From Escherichia phage BEU50, in sequence record OM632671.1: a stretch of DNA of 64,000 nucleotides. One strand, given 5' to 3'. The notes beneath the pieces were generated by a model. It searched no databases, was not told the DNA's origin, and saw only the letters and a list, made by a program, of their open reading frames with translations. Of this stretch, positions 1-61,819 are shown piece by piece. The translations under genes and the position numbers were made by a program. Each line of letters opens with the position of its first letter. Position 1 is the first letter of the stretch.

Positions 1-189
1 ACCGAAGAAGTTATTCGCAACCGCCACCCTGAAGTTCGTATCGATTCAGTACAAGATTCCAAGTTCTGGACAACTGAGCTTAATCTGAGCGGCCCTTATG
101 AAGCTGTTAAGAAGTTCATGGTTGAAGAATACTGCGAAGGCATGCACCCCGAAGACGCCAAGTTTTATGTCAATTTGATTAAAAAATAA
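1..189 (+). CDS. 3' end of an upstream gene (partial, hypothetical)
   Basis: Open frame from position 1 to TAA at 187-189; no recognisable motif. Confidence 0.4.
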   Translation, partial: TEEVIRNRHPEVRIDSVQDSKFWTTELNLSGPYEAVKKFMVEEYCEGMHPEDAKFYVNLIKK

Positions 190-218
190 TTTACAAACTC
201 TTGAGAGCAGAGTATAAT
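189..218 (+). promoter_or_regulatory. sigma70-type early promoter (-35 TTTACA, -10 TATAAT), copy A of a duplicated cassette
   Basis: TATAAT at 213-218; short inverted repeat GAGAGC/GCTCTC flanks the -10. Confidence 0.5.
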
Positions 219-237
219 GCTCTCGTTGGATAATAAA
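192..237 (+). repeat. 46-bp promoter-leader cassette, copy A (second copy at 26356..26401)
   Basis: 43 of 46 nt identical between copies. Confidence 0.6.
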
Positions 238-259
238 CCACCAATTGAAAGGTAATAAT

Positions 260-853
260 ATGAACACACTGAAGAAACTTGTTGAATTCATCCGCACTAA
301 ACTGGGTACTGCTATGGCTAAAAATCTGACTGTCGAAGAACAGTATAACGCAGCTGCAGATAAGTTGATTACCCAAATCAAAGAACTAAAAACGGCTTCT
401 GTTAAATCTATTAATGAAGAAAAACGTATTCGCGAACTTGTTAATGAAAAGAACAAGCAAGCCGCTTCTAAGGAACGTGAAATTCGTAAGCTCCTTGCTG
501 AAGGACAAGATGTTACTATGCATGCTAAGCTTGGTCTTCTGTATCGTCGAACTGCCGAACAACTTAATACAAAGGCTGACGGGTATGCCGCTATGCGAAT
601 TGAAATTGCTCGTAAGGTGGTTGAACTTGACGATGCTCGTCAGAACCTGGCAATCAAACTCGAATACATTCGTGAAACTCGAGCAGCCAATGCCCTTGGT
701 ATCTCTACGGCCGATGATGTAATTGAAATAGCTGCACTGACTAAGGTTGATATCGAAGACACTCTGACTCGTGTTGAAACGTTCAATGGCACTCCAGCCG
801 GCGTCGAAACCACTTCTGCTGATGTACAAGAATATATTAACTCTTTGAAATAA
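260..853 (+). CDS. hypothetical protein, predicted coiled-coil (197 aa)
   Basis: ATG 260 after GAAAGG; ORF-track start at 245 is TTG; charged heptad-like sequence. Confidence 0.55.
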
Positions 854-861
854 AATAATAC

Positions 862-883
862 GGAGGACTCCGGTCCTCCTTTT
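862..883 (+). terminator. rho-independent terminator hairpin
   Basis: GGAGGAC-tccg-GTCCTCC followed by TTTT. Confidence 0.6.
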
Positions 884-902
884 GGATAATAAAGGAGTTA
901 AC

Positions 903-1385
903 ATGCGAAACCAAAATAATGATATTGACTCAATGTTCGAAGAGTTCCGAGATAAGGTAAATCCACCTACGTCTTTAGTTGATTCATTACGATATGTTGC
1001 AACTGGACGTAAATGGTACTGGTCGTCTTCTTATGAGACCACCGAGAAAACGGCTAGCCATAGCAGAAAATCTTTATTAGCCCCAGGTATTATGATTCAT
1101 GATATCGGAGCTATTGCTAAACTAGTTGCAGACCATGATATTAGATTCACCGATTTCGTTGCTCCTACATGGTCTGTTTGTTGTTTAAACACTGAATGGG
1201 AAGCTCCAGATCGTACTCTTCTTCAGTTTGATTGGCAAACATGGCACACTGGTTCTCGTGCAATTAGTAACGGATGGCGTTGGTTCGGACGTGTATCTCG
1301 TAATACAGACCGAGTTAAAAAGATTACCAATGAAATTCGTGTCAATGCCCAAGTTTATCTGGAATTCCCTATGGAAGGTTGGTAA
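903..1385 (+). CDS. hypothetical protein (160 aa)
   Basis: ATG 903 after AAAGGAG; ORF-track start 882 is TTG. Confidence 0.5.
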   Translation: MRNQNNDIDSMFEEFRDKVNPPTSLVDSLRYVATGRKWYWSSSYETTEKTASHSRKSLLAPGIMIHDIGAIAKLVADHDIRFTDFVAPTWSVCCLNTEWEAPDRTLLQFDWQTWHTGSRAISNGWRWFGRVSRNTDRVKKITNEIRVNAQVYLEFPMEGW

Positions 1386-1876
1386 TGATTAACAAAACAT
1401 ATTGGTCTAATATAGACGATGGCGACGAAGGTATTTCGTATTATTCGGTAGATTGGACAGGATGTCCATCCTACTTAGTGAAACATATTTGCCAAGAATT
1501 TAAAATCGACCAGCCAGCAGGTATTATTGTGAACAGATACATTAATGGATATCAACCTATCGATGAAGTAATACGAACAACTCAAGCTGAGCTTGAAAAG
1601 TTTTTCAATAAGTGTCAATGGATAACAGGATGGATTATATTTGTACCGTCGGTATGGTTTTTTAGTACTAAAGTAAGTGCCTTTGCTGTACTAGATATTA
1701 TCGCTATCTTATTAGCATCTACTATCGTAAGTATTATTGGTGGTATTATTGGTGGAGGTACTATAGGCATCATTATTAATCTTGTTAAAAGTAGTTTACA
1801 AGAACATAAAGACAAGATAAAAGCCAAGAATAATGAAGTTGAACGTTTTATTACCGAATGCAGGAATTTGAGATGA
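1385..1876 (+). CDS. hypothetical membrane protein (163 aa)
   Basis: ATG overlaps upstream stop (TAATG); hydrophobic Gly/Ile-rich segment. Confidence 0.5.
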   Translation: MINKTYWSNIDDGDEGISYYSVDWTGCPSYLVKHICQEFKIDQPAGIIVNRYINGYQPIDEVIRTTQAELEKFFNKCQWITGWIIFVPSVWFFSTKVSAFAVLDIIAILLASTIVSIIGGIIGGGTIGIIINLVKSSLQEHKDKIKAKNNEVERFITECRNLR

Positions 1877-2109
1877 GTATAGCAATTTACATTAAATCAG
1901 AATCATGTGATAGTTATCTGTACACATATGATAAAGATGTGTCAGAAGAAAAAATCAAAGACGACCTTAATATGGACCTTGATATGTTCTGTCCTATTGC
2001 AGATTACAAACTTGCGGTCTCTAATAGTGAAAGTCCATCTAAAGAAACGCGCATTGAAGAATTTATGTCCGAATTAATGGCCAAATCATGGGACCGAGAT
2101 GATGAGTAA
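1873..2109 (+). CDS. hypothetical protein (78 aa)
   Basis: ATGA start/stop overlap with upstream ORF. Confidence 0.4.
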   Translation: MSIAIYIKSESCDSYLYTYDKDVSEEKIKDDLNMDLDMFCPIADYKLAVSNSESPSKETRIEEFMSELMAKSWDRDDE

Positions 2110-2557
2110 GAAAAATAAAGTGAAAGAACTATCAGCCGGTATTATTTTCCTTACCGAAGATAAAGAATTATTCATGGGGCGTGTAACTGGTTCTCGTCCT
2201 AAAGGTGCATTAGCTCATCGGTGGGATATTCCTAAAGGCCGTGTCGAACCTGGCGAATCTCCTATCGAAGCCGCTATTCGTGAATGCGAAGAAGAAACTG
2301 GGTTTACACAATATGACCCTGCCTTCCTGAAAGACCTAGGCGAACATCATTACTCAGACAATAAGAATATTCATCTGTTCCTATATACCATCCCTGTAGA
2401 GCACGAGCAATTCAGAAACAGTGTTTGTAATTCCTATCATACATTCCCAGACGGACGACAGATTCCTGAATTTGATGCATTCGCTTTAATTAAACCTTCT
2501 CAATGGGAATATGTAATGGGCAAATCATTATATAAGGTGCTCACCACCCTCCTATAA
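2099..2557 (+). CDS. nudE: Nudix hydrolase
   Basis: Nudix box GRVEPGESPIEAAIRECEEETGF; sits immediately upstream of e as in T4. Confidence 0.85.
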   Translation: MMSKKNKVKELSAGIIFLTEDKELFMGRVTGSRPKGALAHRWDIPKGRVEPGESPIEAAIRECEEETGFTQYDPAFLKDLGEHHYSDNKNIHLFLYTIPVEHEQFRNSVCNSYHTFPDGRQIPEFDAFALIKPSQWEYVMGKSLYKVLTTLL

Positions 2558-2565
2558 GTAATAAA

Positions 2566-2589
2566 TACCTCCTATAAACGTGGGAGGTA
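2566..2589 (+). promoter_or_regulatory. hairpin sequestering the e ribosome-binding site
   Basis: TACCTCC (2566-2572) pairs with GGAGGTA (2583-2589); loop TATAAACGT. Confidence 0.45.
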
Positions 2590-2591
2590 TT

Positions 2592-3080
2592 ATGAATATA
2601 TTTGAAATGCTTCGTAATGACGAAGGTCTTAGACTGACTTTATACAAAGACACCGAAGGCTTTTGGACGATTGGCATAGGCCATTTAGTAACAAAGAACC
2701 CGTCTTTAGCCGTAGCTAAAGCTGAACTTGACAGAATGATCGGACGTAAATGCAACGGTACAATTACCCTTGATGAGGCTGAAAAGCTATTTAATGAAGA
2801 CGTTGATAAAGCCGTTCGCGGAATCTTGGGTAATGCTAAACTTAAACCGGTATATGATTCTTTAGATGCGGTTCGTCGTTGTGCATTGGTCAATATGGTC
2901 TTCCAAATGGGTGTAGCAGGCGTCGCCGGTTTTACTAATTCTCTTCGTATGCTTCAACAGAAACGTTGGGATGAAGCGGCAGTAAATCTAGCCCAATCTA
3001 AATGGTATCGTCAGACACCTAATCGCGCGAAACGTGTAATCTCAACATTTAAAACAGGAACTTGGAAAGCGTATATATGA
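2592..3080 (+). CDS. e: lysozyme (endolysin)
   Basis: MNIFEMLR...GIGHL...[13 protein letters not shown] matches T4 lysozyme along its length; ORF-track start 2580 is GTG. Confidence 0.95.
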
Positions 3081-6973: not shown

Positions 6974-7432
6974 ATGACTATCAATTCGGAAGTTTTTATC
7001 CGCCGTAATAAACTCCGTCGAATCTTTGAAACGGAGTTCCGCAAAATAAATGCCAGTATAAAAGACGCTGCAAAGTCTCTTGGACTACCAGGCTTTCATA
7101 TCAAGTATTCTCAACATCTCTTAGATCGTGCTATCCAGAGAGAAATAGATGAGAATTACGTTTTTGAATTATTTCGTAAAGTAAAAAATCATGTTAAAGA
7201 AGTTGCAGAATTTTTATCAATGCCGGCACGTCCAGATGTTGATGAAGATTTTGTCGAAGGTGTCGAATATCGCCCGGGCCGTTTAGAAATAACTGATGGA
7301 AATCTTTGGTTGGGACTTACAGTTTGTCGCGAAAATCCGGCATTCAAAATGAAGACTCTTCAATGCAGAATGGCTATTATTAACAGTAAACGACTACCAG
7401 GAAAAGCTTCTAAAGCAGTGATTAAAATCTAG
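6974..7432 (+). CDS. regB: RegB site-specific endoribonuclease
   Basis: MTINSEVFIRRNKLRR...YSQHLLDRAIQREIDE matches T4 RegB. Confidence 0.9.
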   Translation: MTINSEVFIRRNKLRRIFETEFRKINASIKDAAKSLGLPGFHIKYSQHLLDRAIQREIDENYVFELFRKVKNHVKEVAEFLSMPARPDVDEDFVEGVEYRPGRLEITDGNLWLGLTVCRENPAFKMKTLQCRMAIINSKRLPGKASKAVIKI

Positions 7433-10604: not shown

Positions 10605-10642
10605 TTTACAACTTGGTAGGACTATGTTATAGTAGTCCTACC
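10604..10642 (+). promoter_or_regulatory. early promoter inside 9-bp perfect inverted repeat
   Basis: GTTTAC 10604-10609; GGTAGGACT (10615-10623) / AGTCCTACC (10634-10642). Confidence 0.5.
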
Positions 10643-10661
10643 AAAACAAATGGAGAACAAA

Positions 10662-13973: not shown

Positions 13974-13999
13974 GGGGGTTAAAATATTTTTAAAAAGTA

Positions 14000-14028
14000 G
14001 TGTACATGCTTTTAGGATATGTTATTAT
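14000..14028 (+). promoter_or_regulatory. early promoter
   Basis: GTGTAC 14000-14005, TATTAT 14023-14028. Confidence 0.4.
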
Positions 14029-14066
14029 AGACCTATCGAAACGAAATGAGTAAATTGGAGAATAAA

Positions 14067-15047
14067 ATGTTCAACGTTCAAATCAAAAAAGGTATCTATC
14101 GTAATAACGAAATCTCTGGTTCTTATGTTGCCACAAAGACATGGTTCCCGGCAAAGCTTAATCCTGAATGTTCCCACTTAGGTGATGGTAAAATTTTCGT
14201 TATGATTGATGGTTCTGAACGTGGAGTATGGGTCTTCAAATCAGACATCGTAATGGAAGGAGTTGAGACATCTCCAGTTTCAGTTGTTGAAAGCACTGAA
14301 GATATGAAAACTCGTATCAACAAACGCTTTAAAGTAATGAACATGATGACGAATGGCATTATCGATGGCAAAATTCGTTCACTCATTATTTCAGGTGCAG
14401 CCGGTATTGGTAAGACGTATTCTCTGGATAAAGCACTTAATAATGCTAATGATAATGGTTTCATCAAATACAAAAGCATTAATGGTAAAATCTCTGGTAT
14501 TGGCCTTTACGAACAACTTTGGCTCAACCGTGATGCATACAGCGTTCTCTTAATCGACGACGTTGATGTATTCTCAGATATGGACATCTTGAACCTTCTT
14601 AAAGCAGCATTAGATACCGGAGATAAACGCAAAGTTTGTTGGAGCACTGCGTCATCTTATCTCGATGATAAGGGTATTGATAAAGAATTTGAGTTTGAAG
14701 GTACTATCGTTTTCATTACAAACGTTGATATCGATAAAGAGTTAGAACGCGGTTCGAAACTTGCTCCGCACCTTCAAGCTTTAGTATCTCGTTCAGTGTA
14801 TTTGGACCTTGGAGTACACTCTAATGAAGAGATTATGGTTCGAGTTGAAGATGTAATATTATCTACTGACATGATGCAGAAACGTGGCCTGACGGATGCA
14901 GAAACGTATAAAGCATTGTCCTGGATGAAGGCTAACGTATCTCGTCTTCGCAATGTATCATTACGTACGGCTCTTTATGTAGCGGATTTTATTTCAACTG
15001 ATAAAGATGGTTGGGAGGAAATCTCTGAAGTAACTTTACTGAAATAA
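14067..15047 (+). CDS. P-loop NTPase of unknown function
   Basis: Walker A GAAGIGKT, Walker B LLIDDVD; ATG 14067 has the better SD. Confidence 0.55.
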   Translation: MFNVQIKKGIYRNNEISGSYVATKTWFPAKLNPECSHLGDGKIFVMIDGSERGVWVFKSDIVMEGVETSPVSVVESTEDMKTRINKRFKVMNMMTNGIIDGKIRSLIISGAAGIGKTYSLDKALNNANDNGFIKYKSINGKISGIGLYEQLWLNRDAYSVLLIDDVDVFSDMDILNLLKAALDTGDKRKVCWSTASSYLDDKGIDKEFEFEGTIVFITNVDIDKELERGSKLAPHLQALVSRSVYLDLGVHSNEEIMVRVEDVILSTDMMQKRGLTDAETYKALSWMKANVSRLRNVSLRTALYVADFISTDKDGWEEISEVTLLK

Positions 15048-15475: not shown

Positions 15476-15510
15476 GTTTACAAGGTCTATGGTTATGTTA
15501 TTATAGACCT
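15476..15510 (+). promoter_or_regulatory. early promoter inside 8-bp inverted repeat
   Basis: GTTTAC 15476-15481; AGGTCTAT / ATAGACCT; TATTAT 15499-15504. Confidence 0.5.
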
Positions 15511-15531
15511 ATCAACTACTGGAGGTAAAAC

Positions 15532-17117: not shown

Positions 17118-17146
17118 TGTACAACCAAGGATGGTTGGAGTATAAT
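17116..17146 (+). promoter_or_regulatory. early promoter, CAACCAAGGATGGTTGG subfamily
   Basis: TGTACA..CAACCA-agga-TGGTTG..TATAAT 17141-17146. Confidence 0.5.
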
Positions 17147-18136: not shown

Positions 18137-18166
18137 GTTTACAACCAAGGATGGTTGGAGTATAAT
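18137..18166 (+). promoter_or_regulatory. early promoter, CAACCAAGGATGGTTGG subfamily
   Basis: GTTTAC 18137-18142, TATAAT 18161-18166. Confidence 0.55.
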
Positions 18167-26113: not shown

Positions 26114-26353
26114 GTGGCCCAAGAATTAGATTTTATCAAATTCAAAAAACACCTCGACGTTAAAATTGGGGATTCAATTGTTAGGATTGAGTATGACATT
26201 TTAACAGATGCTATTACTGTTAGTTGTGATGGAAATAGTTTCAGCTTCGATACAACCGAAAACAAGTACCCAATCTATAAAGGCATCTTTGATATGGGTG
26301 TTGATATTACTCCACGTGATACAAATTACTTACTTTTCATGCTTAAAAAATAG
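26114..26353 (+). CDS. hypothetical protein (79 aa)
   Basis: GTG start after GAGGAAAA. Confidence 0.45.
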   Translation: MAQELDFIKFKKHLDVKIGDSIVRIEYDILTDAITVSCDGNSFSFDTTENKYPIYKGIFDMGVDITPRDTNYLLFMLKK

Positions 26354-26382
26354 TATACAAACTCTTGAGAGATGAGTATAAT
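26354..26382 (+). promoter_or_regulatory. early promoter, copy B of a duplicated cassette
   Basis: GTATAC..TATAAT 26377-26382; inverted repeat GAGAGA/TCTCTC. Confidence 0.5.
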
Positions 26383-26401
26383 TCTCTCGTTGGATAATAA
26401 A
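26356..26401 (+). repeat. 46-bp promoter-leader cassette, copy B
   Basis: Near-identical to 192..237. Confidence 0.6.
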
Positions 26402-26419
26402 ATAACCGAGGAAAATAAT

Positions 26420-26752
26420 ATGTCTACTAAAATCAAAAACGTAGTTAATTCTTTCGCTTTCGATAAAGTTGTTGCTCTTCTGGAATCCGGCAATATTGTT
26501 ACTCCTCAAGTTCTTGACGCGTGGGAATTCCGTCTTTATGAAATCATGCAAAAACACGACCAGAAAATTGGACGTAATTCTATTCGTGAAATTCTAGTAC
26601 AATATATTCTTTCTGAATTTGACGTTGCTGCATTTGGTGTTGAATCTAAAGCTTATCAGAAACATGAAATCTCTGAAAAGACTATCCGTCGTATGAAAAA
26701 TCAACGTAAGAAAAAATTCGTTGACCTGAAAATTGTTAAGGCGGTAAAATGA
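26420..26752 (+). CDS. hypothetical protein (110 aa)
   Basis: ATG 26420 after GAGGAAAA; the ORF-track ATG at 26372 lies inside the -10 hexamer. Confidence 0.5.
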   Translation: MSTKIKNVVNSFAFDKVVALLESGNIVTPQVLDAWEFRLYEIMQKHDQKIGRNSIREILVQYILSEFDVAAFGVESKAYQKHEISEKTIRRMKNQRKKKFVDLKIVKAVK

Positions 26753-28616: not shown

Positions 28617-28790
28617 ATGACGAACGACCTGACCTCTGAAAATTTCGATAAAATCCGTAAAGGCAAAGCAGAAAGAATGAGACGTTTTAAAGAGTCTTAT
28701 GATAAAGCTAAAGCCGAAGGAACTATTACATACAAGCCCATTAGATTTAAAAGTTCAAATGAGCCTCTGTACGGTGTACTATGTGGATAG
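28617..28790 (+). CDS. small hypothetical protein (57 aa)
   Basis: ATG after GAGAGG; below ORF-track cutoff. Confidence 0.3.
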   Translation: MTNDLTSENFDKIRKGKAERMRRFKESYDKAKAEGTITYKPIRFKSSNEPLYGVLCG

Positions 28791-28814
28791 GAACTCTTCG
28801 GAGTTCCTTTTTTT
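28790..28814 (+). terminator. rho-independent terminator (UUCG tetraloop)
   Basis: GGAACTC-ttcg-GAGTTCC followed by TTTTTTT. Confidence 0.7.
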
Positions 28815-28837
28815 GCTTTATAAACGGATGATAAAAT
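28812..28837 (+). promoter_or_regulatory. MotA-box-like middle promoter upstream of gene 47
   Basis: TTTGCTTTA 28812-28820, then 11 nt, then TAAAAT. Confidence 0.45.
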
Positions 28838-51913: not shown

Positions 51914-51948
51914 GTTTACATTATAGATGGACTATAGTATAGTAGTCC
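51914..51948 (+). promoter_or_regulatory. early promoter with inverted repeat
   Basis: GTTTAC 51914-51919; GGACTA / TAGTCC arms. Confidence 0.45.
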
Positions 51949-51972
51949 TATCAAATCAACTAAGGAGTTAAA

Positions 51973-61789: not shown

Positions 61790-61819
61790 GTTTACAACCA
61801 AGGACGGTTGGAGTATAAT
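61790..61819 (+). promoter_or_regulatory. early promoter, CAACCAAGGA subfamily
   Basis: GTTTAC 61790-61795, TATAAT 61814-61819. Confidence 0.55.

Follow-up and report, generated by a model that had tools for sequence, protein, structure and literature searches.

The 46 bp repeat shared by positions 192-237 and 26356-26401 of the window, by which we mean the whole stretch of 64,000 nucleotides analysed, is very probably a multi-copy T-even early-promoter cassette of the PeSL type, endowed with a stem that is under selection and with a RegB-type leader. Our full reading, to which we assign a probability of about 0.6, is that the selected hairpin of this PeSL-type early cassette, followed by its RegB leader, works in read-through RNA.

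The window belongs to a Mosigvirus, an RB69-like T-even phage, and is 98.4% identical to Mosigvirus a20. It aligns collinearly with RB69, running from 72.2 down to 6.7 kb of the latter, and its plus strand corresponds to the direction of early transcription. The RB69 tRNA genes map just 5' of the window. Copy A of the repeat is located between frd.3 (TAA at 187-189) and e.6 (ATG at 260), and the frd.3 coding sequence of RB69 ends at the same place. Copy B is located between a homologue of RB69 ORF075c (TAG at 26351-26353) and a homologue of 55.2 (ATG at 26420; DUF7570). No Rfam family was found at the gathering threshold anywhere in the 64-kb window. The predicted features of the two copies, and the regB gene, are the following.

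181..189, plus strand: UP-element-like A-tract with the last codons and the TAA (187-189) of frd.3; 5' edge of copy A, in an A-rich run common to copy B
190..195, plus strand: -35 sequence TTTACA of copy A, fitting the T-even early consensus TTTACW-N17-TAYWAT (Comeau 2014)
203..208, plus strand: 5' arm GAGAGC of copy A, in the spacer at -22 to -17
213..218, plus strand: -10 sequence TATAAT of copy A, within the hairpin loop AGAGUAUAAU
219..224, plus strand: 3' arm GCTCTC of copy A, at -6 to -1
228..238, plus strand: leader GGATAATAAAC of copy A, an 11-mer resembling a RegB/S1 target
249..262, plus strand: SD AAGG and ATG (260-262) of e.6; 3' edge of copy A
6974..7432, plus strand: regB gene (Pfam REGB_T4, E = 2e-69), whose product is the endoribonuclease predicted to cleave the leader of the cassette
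26345..26359, plus strand: A-tract of copy B with the TAG (26351-26353) of the ORF075c homologue, followed by the -35 sequence TATACA (26354-26359)
26367..26388, plus strand: hairpin of copy B, composed of the 5' arm GAGAGA (26367-26372), the loop TGAGTATAAT with the -10 sequence (26377-26382), and the 3' arm TCTCTC (26383-26388)
26392..26402, plus strand: leader GGATAATAAAA of copy B, the same 11-mer as in the T4 55.2 leader
26408..26422, plus strand: SD GAGG and ATG (26420-26422) of the 55.2 homologue

Both copies occupy short gaps between genes and contain a predicted, strong early promoter of the sigma-70 type with hexamers close to consensus, TTTACA-N17-TATAAT in copy A and TATACA-N17-TATAAT in copy B, which immediately follows the stop codon of the preceding gene and has an SD and an ATG 40-47 nt downstream. 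As in PeSLs, the upstream stop codon is embedded in an AT-rich tract, TAA 187-189 in TTAAAAAATAA and TAG 26351-26353 in TTAAAAAATAG. The leader of both copies consists of GGAUAAUAAA followed by A or C. Judged from standard spacing, i.e. 7 nt past the -10, transcription would start at about position 225 in copy A and 26389 in copy B. Because the cassette's own transcript would start past the 3' arm, read-through RNA and DNA are the only molecules in which the hairpin could form. The presence of a T4-type early promoter in both copies, and the fact that the T4 motB early promoter belongs to the same family, are in agreement with the original prediction of a promoter-leader cassette; what that prediction lacked is the published PeSL class and the identity of the leader as a RegB-like site.

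Copy A (TACAAACTCTTGAGAGCAGAGTATAATGCTCTCGTTGGATAATAAA) and copy B (TACAAACTCTTGAGAGATGAGTATAATTCTCTCGTTGGATAATAAA) are identical at 43 of 46 positions. When the window was searched with three mismatches allowed, they were the only matches obtained, and the number expected from shuffled sequences (n=100) was 0.00. The similarity is longer than 46 bp (52/57 for 181-237 versus 26345-26401), and picks up again with AATAATATG at the start codon. No similarity was detected between the proteins encoded 3' of copies A and B (e.6 and 55.2). Both the identity of the two copies and their position upstream of unrelated genes, as had been claimed, were confirmed by sequence and protein comparison. Going from copy A to copy B, C208 has become A, A209 has become T and G219 has become T. 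The innermost stem pair, made by 208 and 219, is C-G in copy A and A-U in copy B. The proposed compensatory stem change around the -10 is therefore present: the arms are GAGAGC/GCTCTC in copy A versus GAGAGA/TCTCTC in copy B, and pairing is kept. The remaining difference, 209 A>T, abolishes in copy B an extra A209-U218 pair that is available to copy A. The calculated energies of the RNA hairpins are -11.9 kcal/mol for copy A and -7.8 kcal/mol for copy B, and the signal of the latter relative to shuffled sequences is weak (z = -0.9). For a pre-specified stem of 6 bp, a rough estimate of the probability that two out of three random differences hit one pair with complementarity kept is ∼0.006, a value that alone is suggestive and becomes conclusive only with further cassette copies. 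The A>T change of copy B also generates an ATG in the hairpin loop (26372-26374) that is in frame with the 55.2 open reading frame (mechanical ORF 26372-26752). This ATG is probably meaningless, since it has no SD and is located upstream of the predicted start.

Further copies were found in RB69, which contains four cassettes, all on the early strand, located upstream of e.6, 55.2, ndd and ORF231c. The copy between frd.3 and e.6 is identical to copy A of the window, and the one between ndd.1 and ndd has GAGAGC/GCTCTC arms. The copy between ORF075c and 55.2 has CGAGAGA/TCTCTCG, the outer pair being U·G in the window, and the copy between pseT.1 and ORF231c has GGGAGC/GCTCCT, corresponding to one A-U to G-C double change plus one G·U. 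Among phage records overall, cassettes were detected at 1374 places in 766 records. In the scans of IMG/VR and metagenome contigs only ACAAACTC and (A)GAGTATAAT were fixed and both arms were left free. A first IMG/VR scan, in which the leader GTTGGATAA was required, gave 3 loci only, which was too few, and the matches listed for a looser scan with TACAAACTC-N11-GTATAAT were mostly unrelated promoters, which were retained as an internal control.

Among the matches listed, at least 34 are distinct T-even-type cassettes. They display 14 stem haplotypes, each of which is paired at six out of six positions: GAGAGC/GCTCTC, GAGAGA/TCTCTC, GGGAGC/GCTCCC, GGGAGC/GCTCCT, AGGAGC/GCTCCT, GGGAGC/GTTCCC, GGGAGT/ACTCCC, GGGACC/GGTCCC, GGGACC/GGTCCT, GGGATC/GGTCCT, GGGGCC/GGTCCC, GGGGTC/GACCCC, GGGGTC/GGCCCC and GAGGAC/GTCCTC. 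Eighty unrelated promoters among the matches listed, obtained with the same arm-free pattern, have between zero and five of the six pairs in register, mostly one or two. In the alignment of the 34 sequences all 204 core cells are paired, versus 82.5% in column shuffles (none of 500 reached 100%) and 45-55% in slid controls. Double-sided changes are present in five of the six core pairs, and among the 34 members pair 21-34 is seen as GC, CG, AU, UA, GU and UG. A seventh pair, 202-225, is partly supported (UA 12, UG 7, CG 1, and 6 unpaired of which three are C·A) and was kept out of the core helix. Locus L206, which matches the search pattern without having a stem, was rejected as a family member; it is located in the tRNA array of an unrelated contig, for which neither blastn nor tblastx showed similarity to RB69.

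The arms also differ between promoters of orthologous genes. Those of the 55.2 orthologues in two genera are wholly different and in each case complementary, one group having a GGGACC/GGTCCY cassette and Mosigvirus having GAGAGA/TCTCTC. At the e.6 orthologue promoters of more distant T-evens the -10 is again bracketed by complementary arms that are unrelated in sequence (AGGCTCAT/ATGAGCCT, ATTAGA/TCTAAT and GTGTAGGAG/CTCCTACAC). Within the ATTAGA/TCTAAT variant, the e.6 promoter of one T-even contig (L011, ∼540-575) has ATTAAA/TCTAAT and thus an A·C that is left uncompensated, in a promoter-hairpin family other than that of the cassette. Selection on secondary structure had been suggested on the basis of the two window copies; more copies were sought and non-compensatory changes in the core were absent from all 34. 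Together, these sequence comparisons strongly indicate that the stem is under selection for pairing.

On the sense strand, the 204 cells of the 34 members include 18 that are G·U or U·G and none that is A·C. On the antisense strand 91.2% of the cells pair, and A·C mismatches occur in 18 of the 204. The energies calculated for the DNA hairpins are -3.5 and -6.3 kcal/mol. Given that all intermediates are sense-strand G·U and that antisense pairing reaches only 91%, selection most likely acts on an RNA structure. The bias is suggestive only, since it represents perhaps five or six independent events; as read from the alignment, it would fit an RNA helix or, equally, a hairpin of the non-template DNA strand, and would be unexpected for a symmetric feature of duplex DNA. 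That the hairpin acts at the RNA level is put forward tentatively, at slightly less than even odds.

The copy number of the cassette varies between groups: it is one in Tequatrovirus records (upstream of motB), four in Mosigvirus records and two to four in contigs of JS98 size. Clustering of the flanks revealed a single upstream flank plus cassette in front of three different genes (L052, L066 and L156), whereas e.6 was met behind either of two upstream flanks. These shuffled flank combinations, together with the presence of four copies in RB69 and one in T4-type phages (motB), support the earlier view that the cassette has been copied between loci. In contig IMGVR_UViG_3300030021_000002 (L005), a PeSL of another family and an ORF of ∼85 codons are inserted between frd.3 and the e.6 cassette, at ∼13990-14290. 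The inserted PeSL has TGCACA-N17-TATGAT with a CCA-AGGA-TGG spacer, and the junctions fall at the two -35 regions, TGCACAAAC and TGTACAAAC. Hence, an indel junction maps to the -35 of the cassette, the mapping of recombination junctions to the cassette having been proposed earlier as a check. This polymorphism, PeSL-ORF-PeSL in one phage versus a single PeSL in another, is the one reported by Arbiol et al. Being repeated, the ∼60-bp unit would constitute a homology patch for the insertion, loss and swapping of genes.

The window also lacks ∼4 kb relative to RB69 (71042-67085) at positions 1195-1202, with an 8-bp overlap at the junction. In RB69 this region contains part of e.5, e.4, e.3, ORF139-ORF133 and part of ORF132; in the window, the ORF at 903-1385 crosses the junction. 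Of over 50,000 phage records, a20 alone covers at least 80% of window positions 1-3000 in one aligned place, and thus spans the junction. The 4-kb difference was discarded as evidence for cassette-mediated recombination, the junction being away from the cassette.

We then consider the leader. The RegB/S1 site is GGAGRAYARAA, with GGAGAAUAAAA as the T4 consensus, and sites having GGAU and a strict A-rich tail are cleavable (Durand 2006, PMC1702504). The leader 11-mer of copy A (GGAUAAUAAAC, 228-238) fits the A-rich tail at six of seven positions and that of copy B (GGAUAAUAAAA, 26392-26402) at all seven. These RegB-like sites are intergenic and early-oriented. They are unpaired in the centroid folds, and in the MFE fold of copy A the GGA pairs with UCU 199-201. 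According to the excerpted text of Durand (2006, PMC1702504), only two intergenic GGAU sites of T4 are cut by RegB, one of them in the 55.2 leader, and most T4 GGAU sequences are resistant; cleavage between G and A during infection is known there for the motB and 55.2 leaders of T4 and for one GGAU site of RB69. The T4 55.2 leader reads GGGCUUCGGCC-UUUUU-GGAUAAUAAAA, i.e. it combines the 11-mer of copy B with an upstream UUCG hairpin, and there is no promoter at that place.

The same association is seen in RB69. All six intergenic sites of the leader type having GGAU and an A-rich tail, located 19-36 nt before an ATG, are preceded by a stable hairpin, which in three cases is a cassette hairpin and in three cases a terminator-like tetraloop hairpin with a U-run. 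The excerpts of the same paper state that RegB/S1 cleavage needs no nucleotides 5' of the GGAG (Durand 2006, PMC1702504), and the hairpin would for this reason lie outside the sequence recognized by RegB. The GGAU site of T4 motB.2 was rejected as a member of the family: it sits in the SD, behind a different promoter, and has no clear hairpin. Promoter-less RegB-like leader sites arranged as in T4 55.2 are also present in the window, one at 862-894, where GGAGGAC-UCCG-GUCCUCC-UUUU is followed by GGAUAAUAAAG, and one at ∼28790-28836, where GGAACUC-UUCG-GAGUUCC-U7 is followed by GGAUGAUAAAA.

These features could be combined as follows. The arms of the 6-8 bp hairpin would occupy the sequence-free parts of the promoter, namely the spacer and the discriminator, with the -10 in the loop. 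RNA reading through from upstream promoters would carry the hairpin, and transcription might be attenuated or punctuated as a result; read-through across the cassette is assumed from the orientation of the genes and the absence of a terminator. By cutting GG^AU a few nt downstream, RegB would leave the upstream cistron with a 3'-terminal hairpin resisting 3' exonucleases, and another nuclease might replace RegB in cutting just 3' of the hairpin. Transcripts from the cassette's own promoter would be devoid of the hairpin, and RegB would trim only their first few nt, turning the 5'-triphosphate into a 5'-OH. Decay of early mRNAs that depends on PNK and RNase E/G is known to enter at such a 5'-OH end. 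As our best guess, read-through transcripts would be protected or attenuated at their 3' end by the hairpin. No usable T4 Term-seq or dRNA-seq results with 3' ends at the hairpin came out of a search of the literature.

Alternatively, as proposed by the PeSL authors, the hairpin may be a terminator or attenuator of upstream early transcripts that insulates gene cassettes and is unrelated to RegB. The cassette hairpin indeed comes right behind the stop codon of the upstream gene, the three hairpins without promoter that precede RB69 GGAU sites are terminator-like with U-runs, and an RB49 PeSL211/210 stem-loop placed between promoter and lacZ cut expression about as much as rrnB T1 (Arbiol 2010, PMC2839356). 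The cassette hairpin, however, falls far short of the RB49 polyG/polyC stems in strength, its stem is 6-8 bp long, and the sequence next to it is GUUGG, ACGG or CUUGG instead of a U-tract. In addition, T4 early transcription is known to continue past junctions of this kind and to reach delayed-early and middle genes. In view of the lack of a U-run after the 3' arm (tail GTTGGATA), the loop of 10 nt, and the fact that a scan for rho-independent terminators gave no call at the cassette, a role as classical intrinsic terminator is unlikely, and we consider the broader proposal of a RegB-independent terminator or attenuator rather improbable.

Another explanation is that the inverted repeat functions in DNA, either as a cruciform or non-template hairpin that modulates opening or shut-off of the promoter, or as the target of a recombination protein; a structure-specific recombination protein acting on PeSL stems was speculated on by Arbiol et al. 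(2010, PMC2839356). In favour of this, the -10 is bracketed exactly by the arms (-22 to -17 and -6 to -1), and sense-strand G·T pairs also fit a hairpin of the non-template strand. Indel junctions moreover map to the cassette, and the excerpted PeSL papers locate crossovers within the stem-loop or close to it and suggest that a DNA-binding protein may be involved. The 14 arm haplotypes, however, make a sequence-specific binder unlikely, and the junction in L005 is at the -35, outside the stem. For a cruciform the two strands must both pair, and 18/204 cells are A·C mismatches on the antisense one. With only -3.5 to -6.3 kcal/mol for the DNA hairpin and loops of 8-10 nt, extrusion would be poorly favoured. 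Finally, hairpins that have no promoter yet stand at this position ahead of an identical GGAU motif point to a role in RNA. We therefore hold a function at the DNA level to be quite unlikely. Its sense-strand version, in which a non-template hairpin presents or occludes the -10 when this is single-stranded, due to supercoiling or to passage of an upstream polymerase, appears very improbable. If true, most T-even early promoters with such stems would share a structure-based switch aiding the abrupt and unexplained early shut-off.

The idea that the pairing is functionless, an inverted repeat kept by descent in which the compensatory change is due to coincidence or hitch-hiking, fits the single double change seen in the two window copies alone and the copy B fold that is no better than shuffles, but is excluded by the covariation across 34 copies (100% paired with five covarying pairs, against 45-55% when slid and 0/500 shuffles), different complementary arms being found moreover at 55.2 in two genera and at the e.6 promoters of distant T-evens.

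Milder than the sense-strand DNA switch, but likewise speculative, is the idea that hairpin plus RegB site might be a conserved transcript-punctuation module that later received promoters.

Hairpins are not restricted to the promoters of this cassette. RB69 has 24 stringent early-promoter candidates, all on the early strand, and in 15 of them a hairpin over the spacer, the -10 and the discriminator beats arm-shuffled controls (p <= 0.05, mean z = -2.8). The hairpin promoters of RB69 form paralogous families, one of which, having TAGGACTA...TATAGTAGTCCTA, contains about nine members including internal-protein loci. This family, the second after that of the cassette and larger than it, is represented in the window at 10605-10660, 15477-15530 and 51915-51970, where a hairpin of 7-13 bp brackets or overlaps the -10 (e.g. 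GGTAGGACTA...TAGTCCTACC, -20.6 kcal/mol) and the 3' half TATAGTAGTCCTATCAAAAC is conserved. Its RB69 members are at 76797, 69239, 165268, 165780, 67944, 76444 and 19005, and the one at RB69 72339 has lost the 5' arm. In a third family, found in RB69 and present at 17118-17146, 18138-18166 and 61791-61819 of the window, CAACCA-AGGA-TGGTTG lies wholly inside the spacer between -35 and -10, and the copy at 61791 reads CAACC-AAGGAC-GGTTG.

One unit of ∼60 bp would thus unite a T-even early promoter, a PeSL shuffling cassette and a RegB leader site, which are usually described apart. Strand-specific covariation and the association of the hairpin with a RegB-like site are what is added here to the known picture of PeSLs, and we know of no earlier sequence-level evidence for pairing selection on PeSL stems. 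The covariation of the sense strand bears on the question, posed by the PeSL authors, whether the stems are terminators, recombination targets or something else, and suggests that they are selected for pairing, probably as RNA. In therapeutic T4-like phages the cassettes would be predictable breakpoints for gene gain and loss.

Several known systems resemble the cassette in part. REP elements and the UUCG-tetraloop hairpins of T4 are intercistronic 3' stabilisers that block 3'-5' exonucleases. The cassette hairpin shares with them its location directly past a stop codon, and in T4 55.2 and at RB69 e.5, gene 47 and gene 39, UUCG or UCCG hairpins occupy the same spot before a GGAU with an A-rich tail. 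These hairpins however are GC-rich tetraloop stems with U-runs and have no promoter, and the stabilising role of the cassette is a putative one. The T4 genes e, soc, 49 and I-TevI have hairpins for translational control with an internal promoter (PMC3014915). As in the cassette, the promoter is inside the segment encoding the hairpin, so that the long read-through RNA has the hairpin and the RNA starting internally does not. In those genes, though, the hairpin sequesters the RBS and the internal promoter is late, whereas the promoter of the cassette is early and its hairpin ends ∼25 nt before the SD.

The early promoter of T4 motB is a member of the same family (TAGTTTACAAACTCTTGGGACCAGAGTATAATGGTCCCGTGGAGTATAAAATC). 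Its -35, loop and spacing are identical to those of the window cassette and its arms are complementary, and the motB-type member of RB32 has GGTCCT. The T4 motB promoter is active, its 5' end having been mapped by primer extension, and the GGAG leader is the classic RegB/S1 substrate 'motB RNA' (Durand 2006, PMC1702504). The motB cassette differs in its downstream gene, in being the single Tequatrovirus copy, as compared to four in Mosigvirus, and in its leader 11-mer, GGAGUAUAAAA versus GGAUAAUAAA plus A or C. The window thus has GGAU where motB has GGAG, and GGAU placed in motB RNA is cleaved ∼3-fold more slowly (kon 0.025 vs 0.080; Durand 2006, PMC1702504). The motB hairpin is not discussed in the excerpted text of that paper.

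The closest parallel is provided by the PeSLs, described in RB49/phi1 (Arbiol et al. 2010, PMC2839356) and in PST/T4 and nt-1/KVP40 (Comeau et al. 2014, PMC4122927). Terminator or attenuator action of the stem-loop, and mini-circles resulting from PeSL recombination, are part of the description of PeSLs and were addressed by reporter assays and inverse PCR (Arbiol 2010, PMC2839356). In the excerpts of both papers (PMC2839356, PMC4122927), phages of the RB69 type and covariation are not treated and no connection to RegB is made, and the 2010 text contains neither 'RB69' nor 'compensatory'. The RB49 stems are polyG/polyC and were assayed as terminators, whereas the cassette stem is short and mixed, with a 10-nt loop and no U-run; and according to the legend of Comeau 2014 the PST/T4 stems are just upstream of the promoter, whereas the cassette stem brackets the -10. 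What is shared, as far as the excerpts describe it, is the order of elements, with an upstream stop in an AT-rich tract, a sigma-70-type N17 early promoter, a stem-loop, and an SD plus ATG. Furthermore, the PeSL stem-loop commonly overlaps the -10 or sits in the spacer, and that of the cassette (203-208/219-224) encloses the -10. Like PeSLs, finally, the cassettes are genome repeats found at indel or replacement junctions between related phages, and they fit as a further example of this described class (Arbiol 2010; Comeau 2014).
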